A stretch of DNA of 63,507 nt, counting the filler, from Pelomyxa schiedti (lineage: Eukaryota > Protista > Evosea), in NCBI GenBank assembly GCA_020536535.1. It is 13 parts of 13 records of this genome, joined end to end, with 100 filler letters (N's around TTAATTAATTAA, not from the genome) between each part and the next. Parts side by side here need not be neighbours in the genome. Positions count along the whole stretch, not along the records: positions 23,282 to 31,898 come from JAHLWZ010000314.1; 12 more parts are not named here. One strand, given 5' to 3'. The position numbers were made by a program, and so were the translations under genes. The notes beneath the pieces were generated by a model. That model saw only the letters and a list, made by a program, of their open reading frames with translations, was not told the origin of the DNA and made no database searches. This document shows positions 4,983 through 43,862 of the stretch, piece after piece; position 1 is the first letter of the stretch, and the number at the start of each line of letters is the position of its first letter.

Positions 4983-7900
4983 ATGATAGGTGGCGGAAGT
5001 GAGCGGTTCGGTGTCGACAGCAGCGACGCGGCGGGTTGTACGGACGACGCTGCGAGCGACAACAACGACGACGTAGTGACTCTGGGCAGCGTTCTCCGCG
5101 GCGTCGTGGTCGTCGTGGCGGCCAAGGCGGCTCCGCAGTCCCTCCGGGCCCCACCACCACCACCACCCTCCTCTTCGTCTCCACTGCAATCGCCCTCGTC
5201 GTCGTCGTCGTCTCCGCCATCAAACAACGAGTGCGAGAATATCGCCACGGCGGCCTCGGCGGCAGGGGGGGAGAGCGAGAACAGGGGGGCGGGGGCGGGG
5301 GCGGCGGCGGGGGCGGGGGAGGACGTCGTGTTGTGCTGCCGGTGCTGCCGGGTAGGGGCGGGGTGCGGGTGCGGGAGCGAGAGCCGGGCGGGGGCGCTGT
5401 ACGACCCGGTCGGGGACCTGTGCCAGCTCACGTTCACTCTATCCAACACTTCTGTAATGTGCGTAGCTATTCTGTGTTGTTGTGTGTGGTTGTGTGTGGT
5501 TGTTTTGTGCGTGTCATGGGTTATTGCAAGTGGTGTGGTGTGTTCTTTCCCCTTGGGTTTTTTTTTTTTTTGTTTTGTTTTGGGTCTGACTCTTGGCTAT
5601 TATTTAGAGTTTTGATCAAATTGGTGGAAAGGGGGGATGCTGTGCAACACGCAAAGGGGGTCAGAACCCTGATGTTCTATGTTCCTTCTTGTGGTGGAGG
5701 GGTTCTTCCAGAGTCCAACTTGGCTCTCCAGCACCAGTCTCGATCGGAAATTGTGTGTATCAACCCTCCGTATTCTGTTTCAATTATACTTTCCTTGAAT
5801 TCAACTTGACAAATGTTTTTTCCAGATTGCTCGGGGTCTTCTTCAATTAAATATTCTACTTTGTGGAATTGGCGCCTTTTCTTTGCAGGCTCCACCTGCA
5901 AGCACTATCACCTATCATTACTCAATTACTGTAAATTTATGCCCCTCCAATAACAATTCAAACACAAACAATACGGCATGGTTTGTAGTGGCATGTGCAA
6001 GGCGGGTAGCAGAAACTGTAAATTCTGTGTGTACATTTTACAAGCAAGTATCACTTCTGACATCCTTTGAAGTTACACCCTACAATGATGAAATTACTTT
6101 GGAGTGATGAGCCACTTGAAACTATACTGTTACCACTTTCGATGAAGCACGCATCACAACAGCAGCACCCCACTTCATCTTTATCAACTCGGACCTCAGA
6201 GTTGGGAGATCTCTGCATTACCCAACGTTCAATTCAACACTCCAGAGCAGACAAATCTCCAGTTCCTACAGACCAGTCTCTACATCACTCGCCCCAAAGA
6301 ATTCCAGAACAACCACTTTCTGTTGGAAAGGCACATCACAAATTCCGGACTCCTGCCACCAAAAAGCCTTATATTGCTTTATCAACCGCTGCAGAGATGC
6401 CTTCTGCAGCATCAAGTGTACCTCCGACTTCAATAGTTGGAAAGCGGGTTTCTTCTGGTGGTCCTACCTGGATATGGGGGACACAAGGATGTGGAAGCGT
6501 TGGAACTGTTACCCATGTAGATAGGCCGGGCTGGGTTTCAGTGAGATGGAACACAGGTCTTTTTTTTTTTTTTATACATAACCCTCGATATTCATGCAAC
6601 AATCACAGGTGATATGAATTTGTATCGATGGGGAAATGGGTATAACGACTTGCTCCTTCTTGATGATACCCCCAGTTTGTACATTTACGTCACTCTGCCC
6701 ATTATGTGACATGAACTCAGGTAGCACTGCTGATGGACCTTCTTGTTACCCTCTCGAGTACCTAAGGGCACCACCACTGGCACTAATTGGAAAACAAGTT
6801 ACCCCAGGCCCAGACTGGAAATGGGGTAAGTTTTCCTCGACACAATAGCCAACATGTAATTCTAAACTTCTCAAGGAGAACGACCTCCCTGTGGTTCTGT
6901 CGTATCCCTAGCAAAAACTGAGGGTTGGATCAAAGTCATATGGTCAAACAATACGAAATCACAGTACTTTTTTTTTTCGTAAAAATACTACCTTATATCA
7001 ACGGAAATGAAGGTACCGCTGGGGAGCATGTGGTGCCTATGACGTTGTCCCAATTTCTTCTGGTATTCCTTGAAAAGCCAAAACCTATCTCATTATTTCG
7101 TCAGGAGGGGAACCCATTGTAACAAGACTTGAATCCCCACCCACAGCGGCCTCCATTTTGGCAAAAAGGGTGAGAGGAAATGGGCCAAGTTGGAAGTGGG
7201 GTCTGTCCAAGTCCTCCTTTTTTTTGTTTACTCATTCCTGTCTCAGGTGAACAGGGCAGCCGAGGAGCTGGTTATGTAGTGAAATTAGAGGATCCTGGGT
7301 GGGTGAGGATTCTTTGGGATGAGTATGTAACAGCATTTGAGTTTTGTTTCGGGATTCCTTCTCAAAATATGCAGTGGTACCTCAAATGTCTATCGGTGGG
7401 GAATTAGACATTTTGACCTTATTGTTTGTGAAGGTACCGTACTCTTACTTCTTTTTCACTTACAACAAACAGACGAAAAAAAAATTGCGCTCGAATCGGC
7501 CCTTGCTTTCCTTTGTGCCTTACATCCTCGGCTTGGTGTGACTGCATACTTTTCTCAGATAACAGCCTTAATTGCTCTTAAATTAGGCGTTAATAGTCCA
7601 GCCCGTTACATTTCCCATCACCTGGGGTCATTGGTTATAACTCGAATGATGCCAAAAGCTTATGAGAATGAAATTCCACCCGCATTTGGTGTGACGAAAG
7701 GAAAGCACACTACCCTTACTCATGTTAAACAGAAAAGTGGCAGCATCATGTAAGTTGCAGTGTTTGTGGTGCTCTACAAGCACCACAACCAGACGGAAAG
7801 ACAACCACTATCACTGGAAGTAGATTCAGGTACCCTCATCAAAGATCCCTTATCTTACAATGCTGATATAGCACAGGTGTTGTGTTTGCGAGTCATTTGA

Positions 7901-9048
7901 TATATGTTCTTCATGTGTAAATAAGCAAAAAGAACTGCTGGAAATCGGTCTCCACAAAACGCAACACCCCCTTGTCGAAGTTGCACCAAAACCGCCTCTA
8001 GGTAAATTGAACAGTCGTGTGGTCCAACTAATAAATGTTCAGGATCACTTCGGACTCACTATGATCTTCTACTCACTCTTATGATGCCTTCGGGAACACA
8101 GAGTGGGTCTCTTGCTGAGTTTTGTAAACTTGTTCCCCGAATTATTGCAACACACCCCCGTGTTATAACCCACATGGACTCTTTAGGAAAAACATTGTAT
8201 GACTATTCTTTAGCCTTAGGTTTGTATCCCGTGTATCTATTTGTGTTTCACATAAAAAGGATCACGAATTCCGGATAAGACCAAGGCAAAACTGCGGCCC
8301 TCAACTCCTTTACGGTCGTTACTCCATGATTCTGTATTATCTGGTGATATAAATTCTGTTAAGGTGGGAACTAGCGATCTTACAAACTCCCAAATTTGAC
8401 TTGCACTTTTTCAGGTAGCACTTACACAGATACAAGACATAAATGCCAGAGATGGTAACGGCTACACAGCACTTCACTACGCAATTGTCACCCACGATTC
8501 CAAGATATATTCATATCTCGTAGAAAACAATGCCGACTGTAGTATAATAAAACCAAACAGGTAGGATAGTTCAATAATTTTTTTTACATTTTATATTCAT
8601 TTTGTTTACAGGCATCCCGATTATGAAGACTGGATCCGGAAATCATCAATGCGGTGCAATGCCGCATCACAAGCGCAACTGCAGACTCCCGAAAACCCAC
8701 TAGCAAATCCGTACATATCCAACTCCATACACATCACCCCTAGCACATTTGCGCATGCACAGCTCATCCTCAATCCCATCGAAACTCTGGTTGGCAAGAG
8801 AGTCACAAGAGGCCCTGACTGGGTTTGGGGTGTGTATTACTTAGACTCTTGTAGTACTACCACTAATTGATTTACCAACCTATTCTCTAACCAAACCAAA
8901 CAGGAGCCCAAGGAGCGGACACAGACGGCACAGTCCTGGAAGTATCAGAAGAGAAAGGCTGTGTCAAGGTGATGTGGGACAATGGTGAGTGCAACCTATA
9001 CAGATACAACTCCAGAAGGTTGGATGTGCAGGTCCACAACCAACATTA
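4983..9048 (+). CDS. Multi-exon protein with four MIB/HERC2 domains, ZZ zinc finger and ankyrin repeat (Mind bomb-like domain set)
   Basis: VGKRV..G.PTWIWG..GTV...GWVSVRW.TG..NLYRWG motifs at about 6435, 6785, 7160 and 8790. CSVC...RCCVCESFDICSSC..H..QH at about 7755-7970. INARDGNGYTALHYA..LVENNAD at about 8440-8540. The 5' start is uncertain. Confidence 0.75.
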
Positions 9049-9092
9049 NNNNNNNNNNNNNNNNNNNNNNNNNNNNNNNNNNNNNNNNNNNN

Positions 9093-9104
9093 TTAATTAA
9101 TTAA
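9093..9104. other. Artificial contig linker TTAATTAATTAA flanked by Ns (also at 18943, 21561, 23226, 31943, 34342, 37201, 45578, 47546, 50907, 52892, 54200)
   Basis: The identical 12-mer with stops in all six frames sits in the middle of about 100-nt N blocks, 12 times. Confidence 0.97.
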
Positions 9105-9148
9105 NNNNNNNNNNNNNNNNNNNNNNNNNNNNNNNNNNNNNNNNNNNN

Positions 9149-18460: not shown

Positions 18461-18998
18461 TTTTTCTTTTTCAGGGAAGGATCAAATTCCAACTCAAGGA
18501 AGCTCTAACGGTGTACAGGTCGGTGTTATAATCTCTCTCCAACTGGCAAAACTTAGTAAGGAACCTCAACACCCCAGGCACCCCCTCAATCCATAACCAA
18601 GCCCTCTTGGTTGTAACCAACATGAAACCCCTGAACAATTGCATGGCCCATGTATGCAATACAGGAAGAAACTAGGCCCAATTCCAATGCTGACCCCTGA
18701 TGATGTAGAGGCAGCGATCCTTTCATGTAAATCCAAATCAACAAAAATAGAGGAAGCACCTCTCCCCCCCCCCCCACCCCACCAAAAGGGGATCGATGTG
18801 GGTCATTCTGTGGCTCGTGCTCTGTCAATGTGCGTCGATGTCGATTTGGTGAGGCCGTCGCTCCTTGTCGATGTCGATTTGGTGAGGCCGTCGCTCCTNN
18901 NNNNNNNNNNNNNNNNNNNNNNNNNNNNNNNNNNNNNNNNNNTTAATTAATTAANNNNNNNNNNNNNNNNNNNNNNNNNNNNNNNNNNNNNNNNNNNN

Positions 18999-21516: not shown

Positions 21517-21616
21517 NNNNNNNNNNNNNNNNNNNNNNNNNNNNNNNNNNNNNNNNNNNNTTAATTAATTAANNNNNNNNNNNNNNNNNNNNNNNNNNNN
21601 NNNNNNNNNNNNNNNN

Positions 21617-23181: not shown

Positions 23182-23522
23182 NNNNNNNNNNNNNNNNNNN
23201 NNNNNNNNNNNNNNNNNNNNNNNNNTTAATTAATTAANNNNNNNNNNNNNNNNNNNNNNNNNNNNNNNNNNNNNNNNNNNNACTGTTTTGACCGCAGATT
23301 GTGCTATCTATTATTGTGGATTGTATTGTACACCAAAGAATGATGGATTGCAGACATCATTTTCCAGATTTTGTGAATGCTTTGTTTAAAGGAAATAAAA
23401 AACCCGTATTATTTTCCTTTGTGTGCAAAAGGAGGAAAAGATGTAGTGAGTGCGTTACAAACACCTGGGTAGCGACACTTTGAAAGAGGAAACAAAAACT
23501 GTGCCAGTAGTGTCCCGACTGC

Positions 23523-25519
23523 TCAGCTGGTGTGAAGGTCACTATCAATGGCACTCATTATGTGCTCAAAGAGCATGGCTCGACCCATTCTGGAGAATAT
23601 TTCTTCTGGTTCAGCATCGGAACTTTCTGGACTTTTGGAATTTTCACAAGTGGTGTCCACACCTGTGGGGAGTTCAAGTACTGCAACAGGTTCACGTTCG
23701 TTTGTGCTGAGAGTTTGGGAAGTGGATGGGGAAGTGGGTGAATCCGTTTTTGCTGCCGAACTTTTTGAACTTGTTGTTGTGGTAGGTGTAGTTGGGGCCG
23801 TGATATTGAAATCACTTGTTGTAAGGGAAGTTGTCCTTCTTCTTTTGGTGTGCTTTCCAGGGAAGAGGTCTTTTTTCTTGTTGGATCCACATGATTTATG
23901 GTGTTTGAGTGGAAGGATTCTTTGGTTTGGCGGAGTGGTTTTGGCTGTTATTATTTTTGAATTTTGTTGTGGTGTGGTATGCATTGAACTATCAGTTGGT
24001 GAATTTGATTTTGTTGGTACTAGGCATTTGGCAGATTTCAATGGTGTTACACATGGTGTTGGTTTTGACAAAACACGAAAATTGCCACCACATCTCTCAA
24101 TTATTGCATTGAGACAAGCTCCATCAAACTGGGTTATTGGTACGATGGTAGTAACAGTCTGAGTTGCATTGCATCCAGATAGTTGAGATAGGAAAGATTC
24201 TAATTCAGGAACAGAACAGTGTATGCAATACAACACATGCCATACTCTACCAACTTTGCAAGGCTTGGTGACATATCTGGTAAAGATCAGTGACTATGTT
24301 TTTGAAGGTAAATGTTTGTTTGATTGGATGCTCACTGTTGTGGGCGAATTGAACCACAAAAATGAAACCATTGTGTTGATGCCTTGACAAACAGTGGCCC
24401 TTTACCAGGTGCGGTAGAAACAGCGTTTTGGTCCTCAAGGGATATTCTTTCATCCACCTCCCCTTTCTTACAAATGTGGATCCATGTCTCTGTTTCATTC
24501 TTGGTCAAAATGGCACACAGATCAAGTGTGTCAGATTGTTCAGTGTCAGATTGTTCAGCATCACCAGATTGGTCAGGCGTGTGAGATGACAAAGCGGCAA
24601 ATTGATCATATTTTTTTGCAGAGACATGAATTTTGCAGTGGAACTGGTCGTGCAATGCAAAAAGAAGCTCTTCTATACCAAGAATATCACACTCGAGGTA
24701 TGCATTTGCATAAGTTTCTTTCTAGAATTGGTTTTAAGGTTGTTTTAGAGTGGATTATTGCTACTTCAAGTAGTGCTATTATTTGTGTGATGGCCATTTG
24801 CTTCGGGGGAATGGTCACTGCTTCCCACGATTGTATACAAAATGTTGTATCAAGGAAAATCGTAGTGAAAGGTACTCTACTGACGAGTTCGCTGCACATA
24901 CCACTGGCAAGTCTTGAATGACATATTAGAAAAGATATGTATGGTAATGGTTAATACAAACCGAAAGTCCCCAGTATGAAGAACACGGCCAAAAGGAGCA
25001 CCTTCCAGGAATAACATGCAACTTCCAGGACAGTGGTTTGCTGGGATCAGACATGTTGTGATGTTCACAGTAGTCTCTGTGGGAGATCGAGGCCATGATT
25101 TGGCGGATATTACGCGCTCCTCACCCATTGCAAGGGCCTCGACAATACCTGTATTTTAATTCAACCCAAAAGTGAGTAAAGGAGCCAATAGGGAAATATA
25201 AGCACCAGACAAGTGTGGGAATTTGTGAAGGAGTAGTTTTCGAGTAACTTCAGAGCAATATATTATGCCCCTGCTAAAGGAATCCGAAAGGCCCTTTTCT
25301 ATTTAGAAATAAACATTCAAGCACTTACCACCAATACCACATAGTGATCATAGTGAAAATGGCTCAGAAAAAATACTTCCGCAGTACCTATTCTTGCTGT
25401 TACGCCAAAAAAAAAAAAAAAAAAGACACACCAGGGACAAGAGGGCACACGAAATCGTCTATCCACACAGCAACACCCTCCAACGTTGGGCACCTCCCCC
25501 TCCCTCCTTGGTGTTGCAT
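23523..25519 (-). CDS. SNM1/DCLRE1-family DNA cross-link repair nuclease (metallo-beta-lactamase/beta-CASP)
   Basis: WIDDF, FFLSHFHYDHY, GL, IYCSEVTRKLL, ANHCPGSCM, LHTGDFR, FLDTTF and C-terminal HCS..EL..FL motifs. Confidence 0.88.
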
Positions 25520-25684
25520 TTGTGCGTAACCCGTACCGCCGGAGACCTTGTGAGGAACTCGTGATTATTTTTCCTGAATTTCTTGTTGTGGTTTTAGGAT
25601 TTGTTTTTTTTTTGTGTCGTTCCAATCGTTACATTTGTTTGTTTTTGGTTGGCTTCAGATTTGTTTGGCTGCTAAATGGAGAGA

Positions 25685-27174
25685 CTACACAAGGTCCTTG
25701 ATGGTGAGGCGAACTTTGACTTGCTCCCATTGTGTGAAGTCGAGTGTGTTTGTTGCTGATATTGTCCATTCGGCCGCATTGTGATTGTTGCGTGCGGCGA
25801 GGAAGTGCTTGAGCGTGAACTCACCGGTGGTTTTGATGTCAGTTTCCACGTCGTTTTTCAGAACACAGAACTCCACTTGCTTGGCACTGGCATAAAGCCG
25901 CATTTTGATCACAGTGAGGGCCACGACTATCTTTTTGGGTGACAGAAGCCCATAGACTGCTATTTGGTAGTCCGCTGTCCTTTTGTGTGCTTCATCTGAT
26001 TGGCAAGTTACCCGGAAGCTGTTGCTACCGGGATTGGCAAAAGTGGCAGCCACGTTGTCTATGATAATAGTGAAGCGAGCGGGAGATACGACTAGTTTCC
26101 AGGTTAAACTGGAAGAAAAATGAGGGAGTAAGGGTATTTTACGGTTATGTGTAGTGCTCTTGAATCGTGTGCAAACACGCCGAAAACTCATTAAACTGGT
26201 ATCATTTAAGTTATCAGCAATCATTAGAATAATATGTGGAGGGAGGTCCAAAATATGTACACCTGGGATTGAGTCAAAGTTGCATCACAATGAATATGAG
26301 AACTCACCATGATATACATAAAGTGATTCCAGAGCTCTATCAACGTAACTGTGGAAAGCCTTTCTATTGATGACAAACTTCTAACATAAATTCTTCTGAT
26401 TAAATCAATATGGAACTTACTTGTTGTTTTGGAGTGCAGTCAAGAAGCCGTAGACCTTTGAGGGAATCAACAGAAGCCTGTTTTTGTTGCTCAGGTTAAT
26501 GGGTGAGGCCTCAAATGAGCACTTACTTTGGAATTGTTGTAGGAAGCTTGAATAAGGGCGATCTTTTTTTCTTCCAATTTAAGTGCCAATTCTTTCGTTA
26601 TTGCCACAAATTCCTCGTTAATCTCGGCCTCCACTCTTTCTTCATTCTACTTCACACAGGATAAAACTCAGACAGGAACCACACAAACATGATTTTGACA
26701 AGTACAAACGAGAGAGAAAGAAAGCAAGAAAAACCCACTGAATGATAAAGAAAGGGGAAACAAAACCAAGCAAAGCAAAAAAAAAGAAGGAACGGCACAT
26801 ACTGTAGACACATCCCTAAGCATCCTTTCCGAGAAAGACATGATGTCCTTCAGCACACCAAAGTCTACGCGTCGTCGCTTGGCTCCAGGCTCGACGGGCT
26901 TCTCATTGGGATTAGGGGAAGAGCCAGAAGCAACTGCGGCTGCCGACGACGACGTGGTCGTGGATGACGTCAGCGTCGACGACGACGACGTGGTCGACGC
27001 AGAGGAGCCCATGTAAGGAGGCGGGGAGGAGGAGCGGGACAGAGGCGGGGACGACGACGGGTCGGCGCGGCGCTGCTGCAGTTGCACTGCGGAGTGTGTG
27101 TAAGAGGGGTGCAACTGCAAGTTTGACCCTGGTGGAACACCGCCGCTGCCGTTGTTGTGCCGCTGCACAGACAT
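25685..27174 (-). CDS. F-box protein with Ser/Pro-rich N-terminus and basic NLS-like motif
   Basis: ILDLPPHIILMIADNLNDTSLMSFRRVCTRF is a classic F-box. First exon has AKRRR. Several small exons lie between. Confidence 0.7.
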
Positions 27175-28498
27175 GAATTTTCCTTTTTTTTTTGTTATTG
27201 GTTTGGGGTGCTGTAGATGATGAAGGTCTGGGCGACCCTGTCTTGTGAAACTGGAGAATGCAATTGGGAGTTTCTCTAGGATGGTTACCTTGATTTCATC
27301 ACGCTGGCAGGCGAGTTCCACAGAATCAAAAAAAAAAAAAAAAACGAACTCTTTGCCGTTTTTCGGTGGAGGACCCGCAGAGTTTGTGTGCCAATGTGTA
27401 ATTGTTTTTGATTGGAGTCAATTGGTTTCTTTCCCCTTGTTAAGAATCCAACGCCTGTCTCACATAATCAACCAAATGGCAACTGCAACAGGCACTACGA
27501 TGCTCATCGACAGCGGTGAGTGCATCAAGTCTCAGTGTTCCCACCAAAGTTCCTTTTTAGGCCCGGCACTTATAATGCAGGCTGTTGATGACAGGCTTGT
27601 TCCATTCGAACAAAACATAAGAGTACCTGTTCAAATCCCACGCAGAAAGCGGGGTTGCATTGGGCACGCCGGTGCCTCACCTGGAGTCACCCTCACCACA
27701 TCAACACCACCAAGCCGCACAACACAGCTGGCCGCCTTTGACAAAGTGACCACAACTCCCTCTACCTCGCCAATTTGGAATCCTATCACTCCATGATCAA
27801 GTACATGCCGTGGAATGTCAAGGTGTTCGTTGGTTCTGCTTCGAATTGACGGGTGCTTCCACGAGCAAAAGCTTACAATTCGTTGGTGTTGGAATTGATC
27901 TGCACACACTCTTGCACGATAGAGAATATTCCATCGGAGCTGTTGGATTTTGTTGTGCCATCCATGATTTTGAAAATCCGCAGAACAGATCGTATAGGAA
28001 CACACTAATCTCGTAAAACCAAAAAAATAACGGCTTGAAATACCACCCAGCAGGCACTAGTGCTGTGGTGGATCCACAAATCGCACGTTCTGCCCTAGTG
28101 TGCTCCTTTTTCTATGATACAATTAACAATAACAAAATCGTCAGTGATCTCCCAGCTGGTAACTGCCTGATGGGACCAGGTCTACTTGCAAAGTATGCTG
28201 CTTCATCCTTTTCCTCTTCCTTGTACTCTCCACCGACATCCCACATTGGATCACGGGTCCGCTTATTACTCGAGTGGAGAAGCTCTTCCAACCTGAGTTG
28301 AGCCCCCACAATCCCTGAGAATTCCCACGAACCGATTCCTGTTGACTTTAATGCGAAACTGTTTCGAGTATGACCCACAAAAGGTGCCTCTCACAGGTTT
28401 TCTAATTTAATTTCTCGTTATAGAGGCCCGACTCTATATCCTACATGAGCCCATGCCAGAGGACAGGAACCCTCAAATGTGCTGGAAGAACTACTTGT

Positions 28499-29348
28499 GC
28501 TTTCCTCTGTGTCATCGCATCGTGTTGTGCGTGCACGACCAGAGGTGGGGGATGATATCGTGCACGGTGGCTGTTGGGTGGCACTGGGCAATCATTACGT
28601 TACGGCTGTGCGTTTTGTACTGTTTAACTTGAAATGACAAAGCCTCACATCTGAGAATACGATTGAGAAGAAAACGATCCGACGCAGATCCACCTTTTCT
28701 TCGTTCATCAACAATTATTGGAGCGATCGCTCACACTCCAACCCAACTCCAACCCATATTGCTCAACTCCAGCTGTTAGAAACCAGCTTCGGAATGCCGG
28801 AACAGACATCAACTCCGCACTCGATGAAGAACATGCCAAGGGACTCTCAGGGGCTTCGGCTGGTATGCCTTGCCTTCTTTTAAGATATATTCTGTTCCCG
28901 TTGCTTGTTAAGAACATAATCACACGAAACCTCGAGGTTTTTTCCTTTTTTTTATTCTCAATTGGCTGAGACTAGATGAAAACATCCTTTCCGCCAAACG
29001 ACGAGTTAACTTTTTCCGTTGATTATTTTATTATTAACAACCAATAGCTTAGAAGAGAATAATAAACTCGTTTGAAGACAAGGCGGTTTTGTGATTAGTG
29101 AGGTGACAGGGTGCGACAGCACCACAATCCACTTAAGAACAGCCTCGTTAAAGAAGAGTTTAGAAAGGCGGATAGAAGGAGTGCGGTGTGTGAGTTCTAA
29201 TCCTATTCCCTGTTTCCCCTGCGCCACACAAGGTACAACAAATTCCCAAGTTGGCCAACCCCAACTTCATCCAACAACAACAAAAGGAATTCCGCCACAA
29301 GCAACAAACACACAACACTATGAGTGGCGCCAACAACACAAACACACC
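28499..29348. repeat. Duplicated block, second copy at 31224-31898, including the upstream region and 5' end of the toxin-like gene
   Basis: 28499-28945 matches 31224-31665 with a few substitutions and indels. 29229-29348 matches 29449-29568 and 31778-31898. Confidence 0.9.
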
Positions 29349-29540
29349 NNNNNNNNNNNNNNNNNNNNNNNNNNNNNNNNNNNNNNNNNNNNNNNNNNNN
29401 NNNNNNNNNNNNNNNNNNNNNNNNNNNNNNNNNNNNNNNNNNNNNNNNACAAGGTACAACAAATTCCCAAGTTGGCCAACCCCAACTTCATCCAACAACA
29501 ACAAAAGGAATTCCGCCACAAGCAACAAACACACAACACT

Positions 29541-31123
29541 ATGAGTGGCGCCAACAACACAAACACACCACCCAAGTACAAGATACTCGAGGGCGTCCAC
29601 GTGGACAAGCCCGGAGGACCGCCTCTGAACCTCAAGGAGCAGATGTCCCTGCGGTACTGGAGGCAGGACCCCAACGCCGGCTACACCTACAAAGTGATAG
29701 CCTCCAGCAACCCCACCCCCGGCCTCAAATCCATCGAAAACCCCCACGTCGCCAGCGGCCTCCAGGACATCCACGCCGGCACCTGGAACAAAGTGCACGT
29801 GTCCGTCACCGAGGGCGTAGGCGTGCACGCCTACCACCACCCCGGCACCGGCACCGTCGTCTCGTACAAGCTGACCTCGGCCGCCCAGCAGGCAGCAAAG
29901 GGCTCGGCACCCGGCGGCGGCCTAGGCGGCGGCGGCGTGGGCGGCGGCGGCGTGGGCGGCGGCGGTGTGGGCTGGCGGGCATACAGCGCGCTGACTGGCG
30001 CCGTCCGCGTCTACGAACTCGCGGACCTGGCGGTGTCCGCGTACACGTTTGGGGCGGCCGCTGCCGCGGGGGACTACAGGACCTGCGCGCGCGAGGCCGG
30101 GGCCGTGGCAGGGGGCTGGGCCGGCGCCGAAGCCGGGGGCTGGGCTGGGGCCGCCATCGGCGGGGCCATCGGCGGACCCCCGGGTGCCCTAGTGGGCGGG
30201 CTGGTCGGGGGCGTACTCGGCGGCTTTGGCGGCGGCTACCTCGGGGGCGAGGCGGGCGGCGCCACCTTCGACGCGTGCATGGACGGCGCGGGGCTGGGCC
30301 CCGGCGGCCCCGACGGCGACGGCGGCGGCGACATTGGCGGCGTGGCGGTGCGCGGGGTCAGGGCGATACCGGGCCTTGGGGACAGCGCCGAGTTCCTGAC
30401 GTCGCGGCAGCACCACGTGGGGGTGCCCGTGAGGTCGCCCACGAGGATCCCTCTGCTGGGCACCGTGGGCCTCGTCGGGGGAGCCCAGACGCTGGCGAGC
30501 AGGATTTTCGGCGAGATATACTGGGGCACCGTGGTGGAGCACGCCGAGCTGATGTTTTCGCTGCACTTCAACAACGAGAAGACGCTGTACCCTGTGCTGC
30601 ACCCGTACTATAGGACCACGCTTGTTGGGAGGGTGCTGGGCCTGCTGGATTACTTCTTGAAGGGCTTCATTAATGGGGGCGTGTACCCGCCGGAGTTTTT
30701 ACTGTCTTGGCACAAGCTTCGGAATTGCGACCGAGAGTATTTGAAGGCTCACGTTGTCGATATACGGCACCACCTTCGATCGAACCGGCTTCACTTGGAC
30801 TATCATTCCCTTGATGAGCTGTTGGACGATCAGGCTGAGGACCAGACAGGGACTCCCAAGGAGCAAGAGTACTTTTCGGCATTCCGCATTCTTGGAGTAA
30901 TGGACAACTTGAATGTTGATGGAGATTGCCTTGTACCTCACCCCACATTTGATGTGGAACACGACTTGAATCCATCGGCATCTACCAAGGCTAAATTATC
31001 ACAATCTATCAATGCTGATGCTCATACTGCTCATAAGAAACGCAGTGATACATACCAGTGCATGCATGAGCTCATCAAGGAGTTAATGCCGCAAGTTCCT
31101 ATGTTCACAGAGTACTTTGATGC
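29541..31123 (+). CDS. Putative toxin: polymorphic-toxin-like N-terminal domain, glycine zipper and conserved 'IGGV...SLHF...TLVGRVLGLLDYFLKG' domain (3' end truncated by gap)
   Basis: Intronless open frame of more than 520 codons. NLKEQ..DPNAG..W.KV..GVGVHAY..TG.V.SYK motif. GAVAGGWAGAEAGGWAGAAIGGAIGGPPGALVGGLVGGVLGG zipper. Confidence 0.7.
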
Positions 31124-31998
31124 NNNNNNNNNNNNNNNNNNNNNNNNNNNNNNNNNNNNNNNNNNNNNNNNNNNNNNNNNNNNNNNNNNNNNNNNNNNNN
31201 NNNNNNNNNNNNNNNNNNNNNNNTGCTTTCCTCTGTGTCATCGCATCGTGTTGTGCGTGCACGACCAGAGGTGGGGGATGATATCGTGCACGGTGGCTGT
31301 TGGGTGGCACTGGGCAATCATTACGTTACGGCTGTGCGTTTTGTTCTGTTCAACTTGAAATGACAAAGCCTCACATCTGAGAATACGATTGAGAAGAAAA
31401 CGATCCGACGCAGATCCACCTTTTCTTCGTTCATCAACAATTATTGGAGCTCACACTCCAACCCAACTCCAACCCAGATTGCTCAACTCCAGCTGTTAGA
31501 AACCAGCTTCGGAATGCCGGAACAGACATCAACTCCGCACTCGATGAAGAATATGCCAAGGGACTCTCAGGGGCTTCGGCTGGTATGCCTTGCCTTCTTT
31601 TAAGATATATTCTGTTCCCGTTGCTTGTTAAGAACATAATCACACGAAACCTCGAGGTTTTTTCCTTTAAAAGTTAACTCGTCGTTTGGCGGAAAGGATG
31701 TTTTCATCTTAGTCTCAGCCAATTGAGAATAAAAAAAATTCCGGTCCGTTGATTATTTTATTCAGCCAATTTGTAAGACAAGGTACAACAAATTCCCAAG
31801 TTGGCCAACCCCAACTTCATCCAACAACAACAAAAGGAATTCCGCCACAAGCAACAAACACACAACACTATGAGTGGCGCCAACAACACAAACACACCNN
31901 NNNNNNNNNNNNNNNNNNNNNNNNNNNNNNNNNNNNNNNNNNTTAATTAATTAANNNNNNNNNNNNNNNNNNNNNNNNNNNNNNNNNNNNNNNNNNNN

Positions 31999-33838: not shown

Positions 33839-33989
33839 GTAAGGGCCCTTATTTTGAGGTACTCACTGACTCACCCACAAACTTGTATCTCTCACTTCAC
33901 AGATTGTATGTAATACTATCCTGATTATGTTTTCAATCCCTCTCCTCTAAAAACGTAAATCCAGGGGTCACCTGTACGTACAGCCATAA

Positions 33990-34297
33990 CTTTTCAATCC
34001 CTTTATTGCGTTTATTCACTTGCTTCAATTTCTCTCTCTTTGTTTTGCTCTGTGGCATGTTCAGGATGTGTGTAACTGCCCCCCAACCCTTTTTATCATG
34101 TTTATTCATCAATTTTCTGACTTGCTTCAATTTCTCTCTCTTTGCTTCTCTCTATGATAAACTCAGGGAGTGTGTAACTGCTCCCAACCCCTTTTATCGT
34201 GTTTATTCATCAGTTTTCTGACTTGCTTCAATTTCTCTCTCTTCACTTTGCTCTGTGGCATGTTCAGCTTGTGTGTAACTGCTCCCAACCCCTTTTA
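33990..34297. repeat. Tandem repeat of about 100 bp, about 3 copies
   Basis: ACTTGCTTCAATTTCTCTCTC...GTGTGTAACTGCYCCCAACCC recurs at about 34018, 34120 and 34221. Confidence 0.85.
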
Positions 34298-37404: not shown

Positions 37405-37570
37405 TTTTACTCAAAAAGTGATTGCAGAACAGCTCCGATCTTCAAACCTCACGTGGGAATGTACAGGGGTCTCTGTTGGTTAATGCAACTGGGAACTGTC
37501 CAATGACTGTACTGCCCCACTCATACCACTGTACTTTTTTCTTTTTTTTTGGCCGAAGTCGAGAAAAACA

Positions 37571-39238
37571 ATGCCATCATCGACGTCGCGACCACACAAA
37601 AGGAGACCGTCCACCCTGTTCACCACCATCACAACCACCACCACCAACAACAACGCCCTCCCAAATGACCGACACCAGCAACAACAGCAGCAGGAGTTAC
37701 ATCAACAACAGCCGCAGCGTCATCGTCAACAACAGCAGCAGCATCATCAAATCGGGGGGCTTGTCGCCGTCGCCCCGGCCACACGCACCACCCACACGAC
37801 CACATCCGCCGCCGGCCCCCACGCGCTCACGACCGTCACAACAAAGGTTACCACCACAACGAGGAAGGAGACCGCGAGGGACCAGGTCGCCGCCCTGTGC
37901 GCGGGGCTGCACCCCCGCTGCGGCGCCGCGTGCCCGCTGCGCAGGGTAATGGGGGCAGCTGCAGCAACGGCGGCGACATCGACGGCAACGGCGATCCCGG
38001 TGCGCTGCGTTGGTGATGCGCCCGCGCTGGCTGTGAGGCTGGTGTGGGAGTGGATTGCCGCCAACTCGAGGTTCTACTGTGTCATCTGGGACAGTGACTG
38101 TGGCGACGAGGACGCGCCCTACGTTCCGCCTCTGATGGTCACGTTTGGCGTGTCGATGTTGCTGATGACTCTGACGCACGACGTGAGGTGGTGGGCACAG
38201 AGGTATGGCATGGAACTGCTTGGATCCAGCTTGCACTACCTGATTGTGGAAAAAGGAAGGGGTGTTTTCTTGCTGCAGGACAGGCAAACGGGCAAGAGGA
38301 TACAGCTGGTGAAATTTCCAGATAGTAATGACTATATGTCAGGTACTGTAAGATGTGCAACAAACGGGAGATGGATTGTGTGGTGTGACGGGCATTCCAT
38401 GAAGATGGTTGTGGCTGAGATACCCATGAGGAAAAACGGTGCAACAACCACCGTTAAGAGGCCAACTGTTGTGAAAATTGACCCAAGGTGGAAAATCTGT
38501 ACTCCTCAGTTCGTGGGAGTCATCAACGAAAACCACCTTCTGCTGTGCTGCCGTGATTCATTGTATTGTATCCCCACATTCTTTGAGTTAGTCTTGGTTG
38601 ACCTTGTGGAAACTTTCTCGTCCAAGAGACTTGCTGTGCTGAGTTCAACTGTGCCAAGATTGAGTGACCTTCCTCCATCCTTGGGTCACTTTCAGAGCTT
38701 TGAGAGCTTTGTAAGCAAGAAATATCATGTGTTCAGAAAACAACACCGTGAGGGTGGTGGTGGTTCCCCCAATCACTTGTTGTTTGTCATGGGGCAAAGT
38801 GAAGGCGTCTCTCGTGGTTACTACCACCTCATCACCATTGAGGAGGGAACTGGCAAACTGGGAAGAGCATTCCCAGAGAGCAAGAGAGCAGCCCGTTGGC
38901 GTGTGTCACAGGTGAACCAGTCTCAGTTCTGTGTTATGGATGACGATTCCCACTTCCCTGTGGAAGGCTACTCAGTGTGGGATGTGAATAACCCAGGCAG
39001 CACGCCAGTCAGGAAACAGCAGTGCCTGAGTGGGTGCACCGCGAGTCAGGCATTTGTTGAGGGTGGCCTTCTTTTCCAGATCAGTAAAGCCACTTCTTCC
39101 CGTGGGCGAAAAGAAATACATGTAACAGATGAGGCCACTGGTGCACACGTCATCACCCTCGAGCTGTTTCGTTCTCTTGACAGTATCACATCCCACTTCT
39201 CTTTCTCTCTCCTCTCCGACTCCTCCTCAACACTTTAG
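37571..39238 (+). CDS. HPRCG-family protein (lineage-specific, intronless, 555 aa)
   Basis: Q/T-rich N-terminus, ARDQVAALCAGLHPRCGAACPL, then a beta-rich body (ATNGRWIV, NQSQFCV, VWDVN, VTDEATG). Confidence 0.85.
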   Translation: MPSSTSRPHKRRPSTLFTTITTTTTNNNALPNDRHQQQQQQELHQQQPQRHRQQQQQHHQIGGLVAVAPATRTTHTTTSAAGPHALTTVTTKVTTTTRKETARDQVAALCAGLHPRCGAACPLRRVMGAAAATAATSTATAIPVRCVGDAPALAVRLVWEWIAANSRFYCVIWDSDCGDEDAPYVPPLMVTFGVSMLLMTLTHDVRWWAQRYGMELLGSSLHYLIVEKGRGVFLLQDRQTGKRIQLVKFPDSNDYMSGTVRCATNGRWIVWCDGHSMKMVVAEIPMRKNGATTTVKRPTVVKIDPRWKICTPQFVGVINENHLLLCCRDSLYCIPTFFELVLVDLVETFSSKRLAVLSSTVPRLSDLPPSLGHFQSFESFVSKKYHVFRKQHREGGGGSPNHLLFVMGQSEGVSRGYYHLITIEEGTGKLGRAFPESKRAARWRVSQVNQSQFCVMDDDSHFPVEGYSVWDVNNPGSTPVRKQQCLSGCTASQAFVEGGLLFQISKATSSRGRKEIHVTDEATGAHVITLELFRSLDSITSHFSFSLLSDSSSTL

Positions 39239-40078: not shown

Positions 40079-40324
40079 CGCTGTTACTTGTTACTTTTTG
40101 AGGGATTTTTGTGTTAACGCCTTCTTCATCACCCCGAAATTCTCAACTTGCAGGAGATCTTGATTATTCCAACCGAACGGGTTACTTCACTCATTCACTG
40201 GTCACAGTCCCTCCAATCCATCCGGTGACTGATTCCAGACGAAGAGGTGCTGCTTTTTTCGACTGTGATCGATTCTTTGTTAAACTGATACCCTTCCCGA
40301 AATACCATCTAGGTAACTCGCAGA

Positions 40325-41881
40325 ATGCAACAACCCACCCTGTTCCAACACATCGACATCCTCCCAAACGACAAACAGCGACGGCCACAACAACAACGTC
40401 GACAACAAGTGGGAGGACTGGTTACGGTGGCCCCCGTGTCGCGCACCACGACCACCACCAAAACGGTGGCACCACTCCCCGGCGCCGACTCCCTCACCAC
40501 CGTGACCACCGAGGTCACCACCAAAGTGACCACCACAACGAGGAAGGCGACCGCGAGGGACCAAGTCGCCGCCCTGTGCGCGGGGCTGCACCCCCGCTGC
40601 GGCGCCGCGTGCCCGCTGGTGACGAGGGTAATGGGGGCAGCTGCAGCAACGGCGACGAATTGTGGGACGGCAGTCGCAGTCGCAGTCGACGCCACGCTGG
40701 CTTTGAGGCTGGTGTGGGAGTGGATCCGCGAAAACTCGCGGTTCTACTGTTTCGCTTTGAAGTGTTATGACGAGCCACACTGCTTCCCACCGCTGATGGT
40801 GACGTTTGGCGTCTCGATGTTGCTGATGACGCTGACGCACGACATGAGGTGGTGGGCAGAGAGGAGCGACGAGATCCTGCTTGCCGCGGGCCTGTACCAT
40901 CTGGTGGTGTACGATGGAAGTGCTTTATTGTTGCAGGACAGGGAAACAGGCAAGAGAATACGGCTGCTCAAATACTCTGGCAAGAGCGTATGGCTGCTCA
41001 AATACTCTCACACTAATTTTCCTGACAATTTTGCAACAAACGGGAGATGGATTGTGTGTTGCGACCTAATGAGAATGGTTGTGGCTGCGTTACCAATGAG
41101 GAAAAACGCAAATGGTGGTGGTTGTGACACCACCATTAAGAGGCCAACTGTTGTGAAACTTGACCCAAGGTGGAAAATCTGTATTCCTCAGTTCGTGGGA
41201 ATCATCAATGAGAACCACGTTTTGCTGTGCTGCCATGATGCCTCTGATTACTTTTTTTTTACGTTCTTTGAGTTCGTCCTTGTTGACCTTGTGGAAACTT
41301 GTTCGTCCAAGAGACTTGCTGTGCTGAGTTCAACTGTTCCAAGATTGAGTGACATTGCTCCACCCTTGCATTGCTTTGCAGGAAAGACGTATCATGTGTT
41401 CAGAAGAAAGAATGGTGGCGGCAGTGGCTCCAATCACGTGTTTGTGATGAGGGAATGTACATCTGTCTCTCGTGGTTACTGTAACTTTGCAGTTGAGGAG
41501 GGAACTGGCAAAGTTGGAAGAGCATTCCCAGAGAGCAGGAGATCCACCAAGCGTGTGTCACAGGTGAACCAGTCTCAGTTCTGTGTCATGGATGATTACA
41601 GTGACAGTGACAGTTCTGACGACTTCCACTATTCAGTGTGGGATGTGAATAACACAGATGGCATGGCCAAACCAGCCAGGAAACGGCAGTGCCTGAGTGG
41701 GTGCCCAACGAGGCAGGCTTTTGTTGAGGGTGGCCTGCTGTTCCAGATTAGTGAAGCTGCACGTTATGTGCGAAAAGAAATACATGTCACAGATGAGTCC
41801 ACTGGTGCACACGTCATCACCCTCAAGCTGTTTGGTTCCCTTCACAGAATCACATCCCACTTCTCTTTCTCTCTCCTCTAA
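40325..41881 (+). CDS. HPRCG-family protein (518 aa)
   Basis: Paralog of the 37571 gene with the same motifs. Confidence 0.85.
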   Translation: MQQPTLFQHIDILPNDKQRRPQQQRRQQVGGLVTVAPVSRTTTTTKTVAPLPGADSLTTVTTEVTTKVTTTTRKATARDQVAALCAGLHPRCGAACPLVTRVMGAAAATATNCGTAVAVAVDATLALRLVWEWIRENSRFYCFALKCYDEPHCFPPLMVTFGVSMLLMTLTHDMRWWAERSDEILLAAGLYHLVVYDGSALLLQDRETGKRIRLLKYSGKSVWLLKYSHTNFPDNFATNGRWIVCCDLMRMVVAALPMRKNANGGGCDTTIKRPTVVKLDPRWKICIPQFVGIINENHVLLCCHDASDYFFFTFFEFVLVDLVETCSSKRLAVLSSTVPRLSDIAPPLHCFAGKTYHVFRRKNGGGSGSNHVFVMRECTSVSRGYCNFAVEEGTGKVGRAFPESRRSTKRVSQVNQSQFCVMDDYSDSDSSDDFHYSVWDVNNTDGMAKPARKRQCLSGCPTRQAFVEGGLLFQISEAARYVRKEIHVTDESTGAHVITLKLFGSLHRITSHFSFSLL

Positions 41882-42398
41882 AACCCAAGAGAATGTTTGC
41901 AATCAGTTATCTTGGCTTTGAGAAAAAAATTGTCCCAGAATCATCAATCAAAGCTTGTTTATGATTAGTATTTGAATGGTTGTGCACCATACAACCCTCC
42001 TCCGTGATCAAAACCAACTTTTTCTCAGTCAGAGTTGTGTGTTTTTTTGTAAAAAAAAAACAAAAAAGTTCAATTTCCAATGTGGAAATCCCTCATATCC
42101 ATCGACATCTTCACTTGCATACCTTCATGCAGCTTAATAACAGAAACACATTAAAATGGTTACCAAACCTCATTGTATCCACGTTTGGTTGTTGGCAAAA
42201 ATGAGGGATTTTTGAATTAACGCCTTCTTCATCACTCCGAAATTTCTCAAATTGCAGGAGATCTTGATTATTCCAACCAAACGGGTTACCTCACTCCTTC
42301 ACTAGTAACAGTCCCTCCAATCCATCCAGTGACTGATTCCAGCCGAAAAAGCAGGAGGTGCTGCTTTTTTCGACTGTGAGCGATTCTTTGAGAGACTG

Positions 42399-43862
42399 AT
42401 GCACAAGCGACGGCCACAACAACAACGTCGACAACAAGTGGGAGGACTGGTTACGGTGGCCCCCGTGTCGCGCACCACGACCACCACCAAAACGGTGGCA
42501 CCACTCCCCGGCGCCGACGCCCTCACCACCGTGACCACCGAGGTCACCACCAAAGTGACCACCACAACGAGGAAGGAGACCGCGAGGGACCAGGTCGCCG
42601 CCCTGTGCGCGGGGCTGCACCCCCGCTGCGGCGCCGCGTGCCCGCTGGTGACGAGGGTAATGGCGACGAATTGTGGGATGGCGGCGGCCGACGCCACGCT
42701 GGCTGTGAGGCTGGTGTGGGAGTGGATCCGCGAAAACTCGCGGTTCTACTGTGTCACCTTGGAGTGTTATGACGAGCCACACTGCTTTCCACCGCTGATG
42801 GTGACGTTTGGCGTCTCGATGTTGCTGATGACGCTGACGCACGACATGAGGTGGTGGGCAGAGAGGAGCGACGAGATCCTGCTTGGCGCCAGCCTTCACC
42901 ACCTGGTGGTGTACGACGGAAGTGCTTTATTGTTGCAGGACAGGGAAACAGGCAAGAGAATACGGCTGCTCAAATACCCTGGCAATGATTTTCCTGACAA
43001 TTTTGCAACAAACGGGAGATGGATTGTGTGTTGCAACACTGACCTCATGAGAATGGTCGTGGCTGAGTTGCCAATGAGGAAAAACGCAAATGGTTGTGGT
43101 GCAACCACCACCACAACCATTAAGAGGCCAACTGTTGTGAAACTTGACCCAAGGTGGAAGGTCTGTATTCCTCAGTTCGTGGGAATCATCAACGAGAACC
43201 ACGTTTTGCTGTGCTGCCAGGATGCCTCTGGTTACGATCTTTTTACATTCTTTGAGTTCACCCTTGTTGACCTTGCGGAAACTTGTTTGTCCAAGAGACT
43301 TGCCGTGCTGAGTTCAACTGTTCCAAGACTGAGCGACATTCATCCACCCTTGCATCTCTATGGCTTTGTGGGAAAGACGTATCATGTGTTCAGAAGAAAG
43401 AATGGTGGTGGCTCCAATCACGTGTTTGTCATGAGGGAATGTACATCTGTCTCCGTTGGTTATTGCAACTTTGCAGTTGAGGAGGGAACTGGCAAAGTTG
43501 GAAGAGCATTCCCAGAGAGCAGGAGATCCACCAAGCGTGTGTCACAAGTGAACCAGTCACAGTTCTGTGTCATGGATGATTACAGTGATAGTGACAGTGG
43601 CTGTTCCGACGAGTTCTGCTATTCAGTGTGGGATGTGAATAACACGGGCAAACCAGTCAGGAAACGGCAGTGCCTGAGTGGGTGCCCAACGAGTCAGGCT
43701 TTTGTTGAGGGTGGCCTCCTTTTCCAGATCAGTCAAGCTGCACGTTACGTGCGAAAAGAAATACACGTGACAGATGAGTCCACTGGTGCACACGTCATCA
43801 CCCTCGAGCTGTTTGGTTCCCTTCACAGAATCTCTTCCCACTTCTCTTTCTCTCTCCTCTAA
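42399..43862 (+). CDS. HPRCG-family protein (487 aa)
   Basis: Close tandem paralog of the 40325 gene. Upstream 42205-42390 repeats 40100-40280. Confidence 0.85.
   Translation: MHKRRPQQQRRQQVGGLVTVAPVSRTTTTTKTVAPLPGADALTTVTTEVTTKVTTTTRKETARDQVAALCAGLHPRCGAACPLVTRVMATNCGMAAADATLAVRLVWEWIRENSRFYCVTLECYDEPHCFPPLMVTFGVSMLLMTLTHDMRWWAERSDEILLGASLHHLVVYDGSALLLQDRETGKRIRLLKYPGNDFPDNFATNGRWIVCCNTDLMRMVVAELPMRKNANGCGATTTTTIKRPTVVKLDPRWKVCIPQFVGIINENHVLLCCQDASGYDLFTFFEFTLVDLAETCLSKRLAVLSSTVPRLSDIHPPLHLYGFVGKTYHVFRRKNGGGSNHVFVMRECTSVSVGYCNFAVEEGTGKVGRAFPESRRSTKRVSQVNQSQFCVMDDYSDSDSGCSDEFCYSVWDVNNTGKPVRKRQCLSGCPTSQAFVEGGLLFQISQAARYVRKEIHVTDESTGAHVITLELFGSLHRISSHFSFSLL

Follow-up and report, generated by a model that had tools for sequence, protein, structure and literature searches.

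A head, a glycine zipper and a conserved body in an open reading frame of the amoeba Pelomyxa schiedti: a possible modular conflict effector

Effectors of the Crinkler/CR type are eukaryotic proteins in which a constant trafficking module is joined to diverse toxin domains of bacterial ancestry. In the world of phages, the zipper segments of tape-measure and tail-lysin proteins are held to enter the host membrane, and among immunity proteins a kind built from ankyrin repeats (Imm-Ank) is known. The toxin domain Ntox8 is found on RHS toxins that have Imm16 as their immunity protein and occurs also in dictyostelids, according to Zhang et al. 2012 (PMC3482391). The GxxxG zipper of Tde1, from Agrobacterium, is required both for membrane permeabilization and for delivery of the DNase, as PMC10240207 reports. 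The protein we present here, from Pelomyxa schiedti, belongs to a family of which we found no description in the literature; the supplementary material to the Zhang et al. paper may list how the Ntox8 proteins of dictyostelids are built.

The window, by which we mean the whole stretch of 63,507 nucleotides that was analyzed, contains an open frame that runs from its first in-frame ATG at 29541 to 31123, 527 codons with zero stops (positions are those of the window; genes and modules lie on the plus strand unless noted). The ORF is genuine and is organized as three modules: a head, a glycine zipper and a body. An earlier note on this DNA, made from the sequence itself, had described an intronless ORF of more than 520 codons and had quoted strings of peptide from its translation; the length holds and the strings are all there. 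The Pelomyxa schiedti genome has 7.43 introns per gene (PMC8887013), and the uninterrupted ORF is hence unusual within it. Its 3′ end is open. Because a scaffolding gap of 100 N (31124–31223) interrupts that end, the partial coding sequence at 29541–31123 is a 3′-truncated fragment, and the frame does not stop where the note's coordinates do: the relatives described below extend about 300 residues beyond the point matching 31123, from which about 300 codons are expected to lie hidden in the gap. This hidden part would be expected to hold the motifs WF.LLK..F.AHY.QTL and PFP.AMPPIP, both conserved, as well as a coiled coil. Contigs from the same sample continue past 31123, one of them by about 990 nt.

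Two word-indexed searches of about 5.8 billion protein clusters returned four relatives. Together with the window's protein they make a family of five members, every one a singleton cluster; it is extremely rare and patchy. Common to the family are the glycine zipper and the body, and in the relatives the C-terminal region is long and conserved and carries a coiled-coil tail. Heads are present in four of the five members (P0004 is headless), and each of these four has its variable module at the N-terminus and its constant region on the C-terminal side. When the heads were compared with one another, all six pairs were non-significant (E 0.07–2.2; E 0.29), the window's head against that of P0005 giving an E of 2.0 by BLASTP. 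The head of P0005 is Pfam Ntox8 (E 2.1e-6; 28.3 bits against a cut-off of 25; model positions 4–70 of 70), and the other three are without a Pfam family assignment. That the N-terminal domain would be swapped while the zipper and the C-terminal domain are kept had been foreseen in the earlier note; the heads are unrelated and one of them is Ntox8, and the predicted head-swapping architecture is therefore supported. The diversity of heads is seen between organisms, a single head type being known within Pelomyxa, and "eukaryotic family" is shown to hold for one member only.

As to the relatives' heads themselves, one of the four is an identified toxin domain, and the Ntox8 match stands only 3 bits above its threshold. 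In the head of P0003 the residues D..ExK..Q follow one another in the order described for a number of Tox-REase families. This head had no match to the Tox-REase Pfam models at E≤1 and none among PDB sequences, and its similarity to the C-terminal end of phrog_34091 is weak (E 0.003). For the head of L001, matches to PDB sequences were mostly linker artefacts. L001 is arranged like a prokaryotic operon, with an ankyrin-repeat gene whose start overlaps the stop codon as ATGA. Scans of L001 for sigma-70 promoters (3 against 1.8 ± 1.4) and for terminators (7 against 7.7 ± 3.6) were both at chance level, and exact look-ups of the neighbour proteins gave no names. Introns were considered as the cause of the frame changes in L001 and rejected; these are single-base indels.

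The window's own head (residues 1–118; 29541–29894) is an orphan globular domain with a histidine cluster (H96, H99 and H100). It matched zero Pfam families at E≤5, with no match to Ntox8 (PF15545) at that threshold, and nothing in NCBIfam or PADLOC, the latter giving 0 matches across four proteins. In a collection of proteins of 211–2000 residues it found itself only; among PDB sequences it found a single match, at E 1.4, and in the ESM Atlas no usable one. The whole protein had eight PDB matches at E≤1, all to query residues 92–190 and mostly to linker-containing constructs and antibody fragments. An AlphaFold2 model of the head alone, with a mean pLDDT of 36.4, is unusable. The earlier note had seen in this domain a Rhs/CdiA-CT or BECR-type RNase, an identification that sequence searches of Pfam (E≤5), NCBIfam, PADLOC and PDB did not bear out. 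Because the head occupies the slot held by Ntox8 in a relative, a toxin-like payload is predicted, on the strength of position and nothing else. Examined with a crude hydropathy test, four of four members lack a hydrophobic N-terminal signal, and export is therefore unexplained.

Between the head and the constant region lies a glycine-rich linker, (GGGGV)n (29913–29972), encoded by a 15-nt tandem repeat for which TRF reports 4.4 copies at 29912–29978; a variant of it has a 30-nt deletion at 29925 that keeps the frame. The constant region starts with a pre-zipper segment (29973–30092) in which alignments place an invariant G177-D178 anchor. Then comes the glycine zipper (residues ~185–240; 30093–30260), two GxxxG-rich segments around a GGP.G turn, of which G212-P213 are invariant and which is kept in all four members that cover it. 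The zipper has 19 GxxxG pairs against 9.5 ± 1.9 in shuffled sequences, and none of 5000 shuffles reached 19; the linker and the zipper had both been picked out in the note, and both are real. With consecutive GxxxG motifs in two segments, the protein has what defines a glycine zipper. It gave no match at E≤1 to the Pfam models Gly-zipper_Omp, YMGG and 2TM, and relatives fell below the thresholds of the Pfam Gly-zipper models (20.7 against 25 bits; 19.3 against 28.9 bits). The relatives' zippers match segments of phage tail-lysin and tape-measure proteins (phrog_1047, E 3.6e-8 and 1.4e-6), and the window's own zipper reaches E ~0.04 against phage models.

Of the body the window holds the N-terminal 264 residues only (30330–31123), from DIGGVAV at residue 264 to FTEYFD. 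They are 49, 46, 44 and 41% identical to P0003, P0004, P0005 and P0006, respectively. Alignment columns invariant in at least four rows number 94, and the invariant polar residues include H342, E473-H474-D475 and H509. Profile searches of the body against Pfam, NCBIfam and PDB gave no enzyme family or other relative, with no NCBIfam score coming close to a cut-off; a family profile gave two PDB matches at E≤10, neither of them significant, and the body of P0003 had no usable match in the ESM Atlas. An AlphaFold2 model of the body (five-sequence alignment, P0004 as target) has a pLDDT of 44.2 and is unusable. Prokaryotic, plasmid, phage or viral relatives of the body were not found. Searches by tblastn of plasmids and phages returned none, and 0 of 25 matches were confirmed in a motif scan of 185,579 prokaryotic species genomes, a scan that sees close relatives only. 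Those results, with the lack of a Pfam match, leave unsupported the note's picture of a bacterial-type, Chlamydiae/Legionellales or DUF1598-like domain. Horizontal acquisition, which the note had also proposed, is compatible with the data, yet no donor was found. Judged by its sequence, the body appears to be a novel domain.

The setting of the gene needs some unpicking. Twelve linkers of the form N44-TTAATTAATTAA-N44 join 13 separate, unrelated scaffolds in the window. The ORF's own scaffold is 23282–31898 (8,617 bp, which agrees with the longest contig given for the identical NCBI protein), set between artificial six-frame-stop linkers at 23182–23281 and 31899–31998, and therefore the only things truly linked to the ORF are an F-box gene and some unassigned split ORFs. 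The F-box ORF (25685–26284, minus strand; Pfam F-box, 31.7 bits against a cut-off of 20.5) is the sole recognizable neighbour gene on that scaffold. A scan of 11 scaffold ORFs yielded this F-box, one sub-threshold ATG27 match and nothing else; no immunity family was among them, though split genes would escape the scan and the gap conceals what lies downstream of the gene. The earlier note had put the ORF on a single contig with intron-rich host genes. The single contig falls apart into the 13 scaffolds; that the ORF lies on amoeba-like DNA is supported.

Upstream of the ORF piece, region U (28498–29348) ends in a 121-nt overlap (29228–29348) that holds the 5′ leader, an ATG (29321) and nine codons. 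The 100 N that follow (29349–29448) are a false gap: the contigs on its two sides share 121 identical bases and were left unmerged. The open frame has no further ATG upstream of its start. Beyond the other gap lies U′ (31224–31898), a variant copy that is 95–99% identical to U and ends with the same 121 nt, ATG included; 31224–31898 is a second upstream variant and does not continue the gene. The assembly was made with SPAdes, at a maximum k of 121, and P_RNA_scaffolder (PMC8887013), a tool that inserts 100 Ns by default (PMC5834899). Independent contigs bridge the head to the zipper and the zipper to the body. The stretch is present in four sequencing runs, all of one sample and study, and among the runs listed no RNA run contains it. 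No ORF variant has a stop codon, and 10 of the 23 differences among variants are synonymous, against 25% expected (p 0.04). With its open variants and synonymous excess, the gene is coding.

The product is 100% identical to residues 1–524 of KAH3764070.1 (NCBI, Pelomyxa schiedti), and the public annotation of that record can now be corrected in two respects. The last exon of the NCBI model (31498–31674) falls within U′; this exon and the C-terminus of the model are artefactual. The name of the record, "AnkX," is unsupported: at E≤1 there is no Fic or ankyrin Pfam domain, a Fic-type motif is absent in six of six sequences checked, and the PDB sequence matches listed include no chain of that name. 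Nothing was found that Legionella AnkX shares with the family protein.

Our preferred reading, to which we give a probability of roughly 40%, is that of a modular conflict effector, in which interchangeable heads sit on a zipper-plus-body chassis, the head being a predicted toxin-like payload and the zipper a predicted membrane inserter. The head would be the effector, by virtue of the slot it shares with the Ntox8 of a relative. The two-segment GxxxG hairpin would be the membrane-active part, by analogy with the zipper of Tde1 and the tape-measure segments of phages, and it may insert the head into a target membrane or carry it across. The constant body, along with the coiled-coil tail seen in relatives, could mediate oligomerization or localization. 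Recombination that exchanges heads would be favoured by the tandem repeat of Gly codons separating the head from the chassis. The likely targets would be prokaryotes in or around the amoeba, that is, prey or endosymbionts.

There are other ways to read the same protein. The one we take most seriously, while thinking it unlikely, has no conflict in it: a membrane or coiled-coil protein, an organelle tether or scaffold for instance, with a lineage-specific N-terminus and with a match to Ntox8 that is incidental or that marks a domesticated, inactive domain. Three heads of the four lack a family, the Ntox8 score is near its threshold, neither an immunity gene nor a secretion signal turned up, and it is the zipper and body that are conserved and the heads that are not, all of which would suit such a protein. 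A single chassis bearing four globular heads that are unrelated to one another is, however, atypical of housekeeping proteins; the family's extreme rarity and patchiness (five singleton clusters) also tells against it, as do an Ntox8 match that covers the whole model and an intronless gene in an intron-rich genome. Quite unlikely, in our estimate, is a cell-autonomous defence or suicide effector in which the constant body and the coiled coil act as sensors of infection (with giant viruses or bacteria living inside the cell, say) and, once activated, the nuclease-like N-terminal head and the membrane-disrupting zipper kill or arrest the amoeba cell that made them, in the manner of immune proteins with N-terminal effectors. 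N-terminal heads without a signal peptide fit cytosolic action, the head of P0005 is a toxin domain, and the conserved C-terminal region and coiled-coil tail of the relatives could sense or oligomerize. But no member has an NTPase, a repeat sensor or a known immune module by Pfam and PADLOC, and conservation lies in the C-terminal region, whereas in N-terminal-effector immune systems it is usually the sensor that varies.

Very unlikely is the idea that the body is itself an enzyme or toxin, with variable heads that target or regulate it. The invariant H342, E473-H474-D475 and H509 are polar residues of the active-site type, and no part of the protein is better conserved than the body; set against this are the lack of similarity to any enzyme family in the Pfam, NCBIfam and PDB profile searches, a predicted fold that is unusable (pLDDT 44.2), and a head identified as a toxin domain rather than a targeting module. 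Finally, the ORF might come from a contaminating bacterium or have been mis-scaffolded onto amoeba DNA, which strikes us as hardly credible even though gaps bound the ORF piece on both sides, its GC of 60–80% contrasts with 44% in the flank, there is no intron and the relative L001 has an operon-like layout. The contig with the F-box gene holds the leader, the ATG and the first nine codons, 121 nt identical to the start of the ORF piece, and a second upstream variant runs into the same 121 nt. High GC was rejected as a mark of foreign DNA, other ORFs of the window showing high, declining GC3 too; searches for relatives in prokaryotes, plasmids, phages and viruses came back empty; and the assembly was decontaminated (PMC8887013).

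A bolder version of the conflict effector, which as a whole we hold to be rather unlikely, is a host-encoded eukaryotic counterpart of the polymorphic toxins with inverted polarity. It would combine cassette-like toxin heads at the N-terminus, a recombination-prone Gly-codon repeat, a membrane-translocating zipper and a new oligomerizing body; with it an anaerobic amoeba would kill its prey or keep in check the prokaryotic endosymbionts crowding its cytoplasm, and the window's head would be a new toxin fold. If our preferred reading holds, the modular logic of bacterial polymorphic toxins would have been rebuilt in or around amoebae, with its polarity reversed and a new constant domain. The catalogue would gain an uncharacterized membrane-delivery chassis and at least three uncharacterized candidate effector domains, and there would be a concrete candidate for how an amoeba could act on its dense prokaryotic endosymbionts.

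How, then, does the family compare with what is known? Crinkler/CR-type effectors have their constant header at the N-terminus and their toxins at the C-terminus, they are not known to have a glycine zipper, and their constant domain differs from that of this family. The phage tail tape-measure and tail-associated lysin proteins (phrog_1047, phrog_167) resemble the relatives' zippers at the level of sequence, but the similarity is confined to the low-complexity zipper and the rest of the proteins is unrelated. Tde1, a T6SS DNase of the Ntox15 type, is likened to the family by architecture alone: in both, a nuclease-type toxin domain adjoins a run of GxxxG, but in Tde1 the order is reversed, with the zipper N-terminal and the toxin C-terminal, and that protein is small, lacks a large constant body and needs the T6SS together with an adaptor. 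The bacterial polymorphic toxins (Rhs, CdiA, MafB and the like; PMC3482391) are set apart by a variable tip that is C-terminal, behind a constant trafficking or repeat region, where this family has it at the N-terminus; their cognate immunity gene follows directly downstream. The family is without RHS or filamentous-haemagglutinin repeats, a secretion-system domain or a signal peptide (no Pfam domain for a Sec signal or for T5, T6 or T7SS modules was found in the members searched), its chassis appears to be a novel domain, the window's copy lies in an amoeba genome, with neither toxin cassettes nor an immunity gene seen beside it, and a recognized end-module toxin domain is carried by P0005 and not by the window's head. 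What the two have in common is a chassis that stays constant while its end modules are exchangeable and unrelated to one another; the bacterial repertoire of such modules includes Ntox8, which P0005 carries here, and the possible ankyrin partner downstream in L001 recalls Imm-Ank.

What unites the open reading frame (ORF) at 29541-31123 (+) with its few relatives is a constant chassis, a glycine zipper followed by a body, and what sets them apart is the head in front of it. The constant region starts at an invariant Gly-Asp anchor (G177-D178 in the ORF) and continues via the zipper into the body; 94 columns of the family alignment are invariant in at least four rows. N-terminal to the anchor, family members are wholly unlike one another, and all six head-versus-head comparisons were non-significant (E 0.07-2.2), which supports the earlier note's proposal of N-terminal swapping with the zipper and C-terminal domain kept. 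The ORF's head has 118 residues and that of P0003, a relative from our protein-cluster searches, about 85 that are unlike it. The member on metagenome locus L001 has a fourth type of about 95 residues that leads into a (GGGGS)n linker, and P0004 merely 37 residues ahead of the anchor. It is the head of P0005 that has a name: it scores 28.3 bits (E 2.1e-6; cut-off 25) with Pfam Ntox8, 'Bacterial toxin 8', and aligns to positions 4-70 of the 70 in the model. According to Zhang et al. 2012 (PMC3482391), Ntox8 is a toxin domain of alpha+beta type in polymorphic toxins of the RHS kind, has Imm16 as its immunity protein and is also present in dictyostelids.

The other heads gave less away. The P0003 head (residues 11-78 of the protein) has its D, ExK and Q arranged as listed for several Tox-REase families (PD-(D/E)xK nuclease toxins), and there is a weak match to the C-terminal end of the phage family phrog_34091 (E 0.003). 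Since no Tox-REase Pfam model matched P0003 at E<=1, its likeness to such a nuclease is only a hint. The ORF's own head found nothing in Pfam at E<=5 and no match in NCBIfam, PADLOC, the PDB or the ESM Atlas. Scoring 208 candidates from proteins 211-2000 residues long recovered the protein itself and no other, and motif matches were confirmed neither in prokaryotic genomes (0/362) nor in viral contigs (0/42). Its AlphaFold model is unusable (mean pLDDT 36.4). The match to RNase-like toxins claimed previously did not reappear in the Pfam, NCBIfam, PADLOC, PDB, protein-collection or motif searches. That this head is a toxin is predicted entirely from its place in the architecture, because these searches gave no toxin link.

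Between head and chassis lies a linker built from a 15-nt unit repeated 4.4 times in tandem. The zipper beyond it contains 19 GxxxG pairs, where shuffled sequences average 9.5 +/- 1.9 and none of 5000 reaches 19; its two halves are separated by a GGP.G turn kept in all four members that cover it. The relatives' zippers fall slightly under Pfam glycine-zipper cut-offs. Among phage families they match (E 3.6e-8 and 1.4e-6) the zipper segments of tail-associated lysins and tape-measure proteins; the ORF's own reaches just E ~0.04 against phage zipper families. A very similar segment sits near the C-terminus of P0007, an unrelated dynamin-like GTPase of 641 aa, and the zipper is therefore a mobile module occurring on other chassis. 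In the T6SS DNase Tde1, membrane permeabilisation and toxin delivery are reported to need a GxxxG zipper (PMC10240207).

Neither Pfam nor NCBIfam has a family for the 527-residue product, and its PDB matches, for the most part constructs with linkers and antibody fragments, all fall between query residues 92 and 190. Searching the body (aa 263-527) against about 5.8 billion protein clusters returned a self match, 'Phosphocholine transferase AnkX [Pelomyxa schiedti]', and two relatives that share 49% and 46% of their residues with it; two further ones, one of them on L001, came from a profile search. All four relatives are singleton clusters without names, and the literature searched describes neither the family nor the protein. 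The relatives extend some 300 residues past the point where the ORF is cut, P0003 and P0006 ending in long coiled-coil-like tails. Nothing was found to support the name AnkX for this self match (KAH3764070.1): it has no Fic or ankyrin domain, no AnkX-named chain among its PDB matches, and no Fic-type motif.

The window is 13 separate scaffolds, not the single contig of host genes that had been supposed. They are joined by 12 six-frame stop linkers (N44-TTAATTAATTAA-N44, including 9049-9148, 18899-18998, 21517-21616, 23182-23281 and 31899-31998), and adjacency across these is biologically meaningless. The scaffold carrying the ORF spans 23282-31898; at 8,617 bp it has precisely the length that NCBI gives for the contig of the identical protein. 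Its sole other recognisable gene is an F-box ORF at 25685-26284 (-) (31.7 bits, cut-off 20.5). LIM, Cullin, Ras and GH18 sequences on other scaffolds are ordinary eukaryotic gene fragments. Elsewhere in the window, three tandem uninterrupted ORFs (37484-39235, 40313-41878 and 42333-43859, all (+); 509-584 codons, 62-86% mutual identity) have Thr/Gln-rich N-termini and no Pfam family, and are unrelated to the head-swapping family. Neighbouring long ORFs at 49-1245 and 956-2056 (+), in different frames and also without a Pfam family, share 55% identity across about 220 residues. Next to the scaffold of the 29541-31123 ORF, another scaffold has a unit of about 101 nt in three tandem copies at 33980-34283 (64-100% identity).

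From its first in-frame ATG at 29541, the ORF runs for 527 stop-free codons, and every peptide string cited earlier is located in its translation. The long ORF is thus real, but 31123 is not its end: a 100-N block (31124-31223) interrupts a frame that is still open. The genome was reportedly assembled with SPAdes, k up to 121, and scaffolded with P_RNA_scaffolder (PMC8887013), whose default places 100 Ns between contigs linked by RNA-seq read pairs (PMC5834899). The gap at 29349-29448 has the same 121 bases on either side, so this first gap is false. RNA read pairs are the likely basis of the 100-N joins, in which case the ORF locus would be transcribed. Beyond the second gap, the piece at 31224-31898 repeats upstream 28498-28948 with 95-99% identity and closes with these 121 nt as well, which makes it a second variant of the upstream region (allele or paralog), not genuine downstream sequence. 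The last 59 residues of KAH3764070.1 come from this piece (31498-31674), which has a near-identical copy upstream of the ORF at 28775-28948, so that C-terminus is a scaffolding artefact and the true 3' part is absent.

The ORF is covered by contigs from four sequencing runs, all on a single sample. They connect the head with the zipper (29563-30216) and the zipper with the body (29990-31123) and extend beyond 31123, one by about 990 nt, its first 23 letters unlike. Among them are variant copies with 23 single-base differences, a differing 5' sequence that joins at 29563, and an in-frame 30-nt deletion that maps to the tandem-repeat linker. None of the 23 differences makes a stop codon, and 10 are synonymous, a share that chance would put at 25% (p 0.04).

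Where did such a gene come from? The F-box-bearing contig already includes its leader, ATG and 9 codons, contiguous with F-box DNA, and the same 121 nt are also entered by the second upstream variant; we regard contamination or mis-scaffolding as a very remote explanation of the ORF. Its GC3 falls from 0.86-0.91 in the first 400 codons to 0.32 over codons 451-500 and 0.47 in the final 300-nt window. As weaker declines of the same kind occur in other long ORFs across the window (GH18 reaches 0.96), the steep 5'-to-3' gradient seems to be a property of the Pelomyxa schiedti genome. That genome is reported to average 7.43 introns per gene (PMC8887013), which makes an uninterrupted 1.58-kb ORF unusual. 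The horizontal acquisition proposed before is compatible with this, but no donor was found. Nor was evidence found that the chassis, with its supposed bacterial-type C-terminal domain, is bacterial, in scans that detect fairly close relatives only: motif matches to the chassis were confirmed in 0 of 25 cases across 185,579 prokaryotic species genomes and 0 of 59 in viral contigs, tblastn against 72,556 plasmids and 50,697 phage records gave no match, and neither did a profile against the PDB. L001 itself has three tightly packed ORFs on one strand, an operon-like layout. The first ATG of a giant ankyrin-repeat ORF (3930-8354 (+), over 1,439 codons and cut off by the contig end) overlaps the stop codon of the toxin-like gene as ATGA; upstream of the toxin-like gene there is no Shine-Dalgarno sequence, and there is a polypyrimidine tract followed by AG. 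The ankyrin ORF may encode a partner or an immunity protein, or may point to a prokaryotic L001; it is a lead because polymorphic toxin systems include ankyrin immunity proteins. The L001 copy has several single-base indels or frame changes clustered at about 2200-2400, in the body's most conserved part, with head and zipper upstream and some 550 codons downstream all open; the cluster could be decay or assembly error.

We put the probability that the ORF product is a modular conflict effector at roughly 0.4. Its payload would be the head, with the zipper inserting into a membrane or permeabilising it; the body and coiled coil might oligomerise or localise the protein, and the Gly-codon repeat could ease exchange of heads. 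A membrane protein outside any conflict, its N-termini lineage-specific, we think unlikely though worth keeping in mind. An effector of cell-autonomous suicide or defence strikes us as a little less likely still, and a body that is the true enzyme as improbable. Five members and one identified toxin head, all from sequence, are thin evidence. Set beside bacterial polymorphic toxins, the family has its polarity reversed, its chassis is new, and an amoeba encodes at least one of its members.
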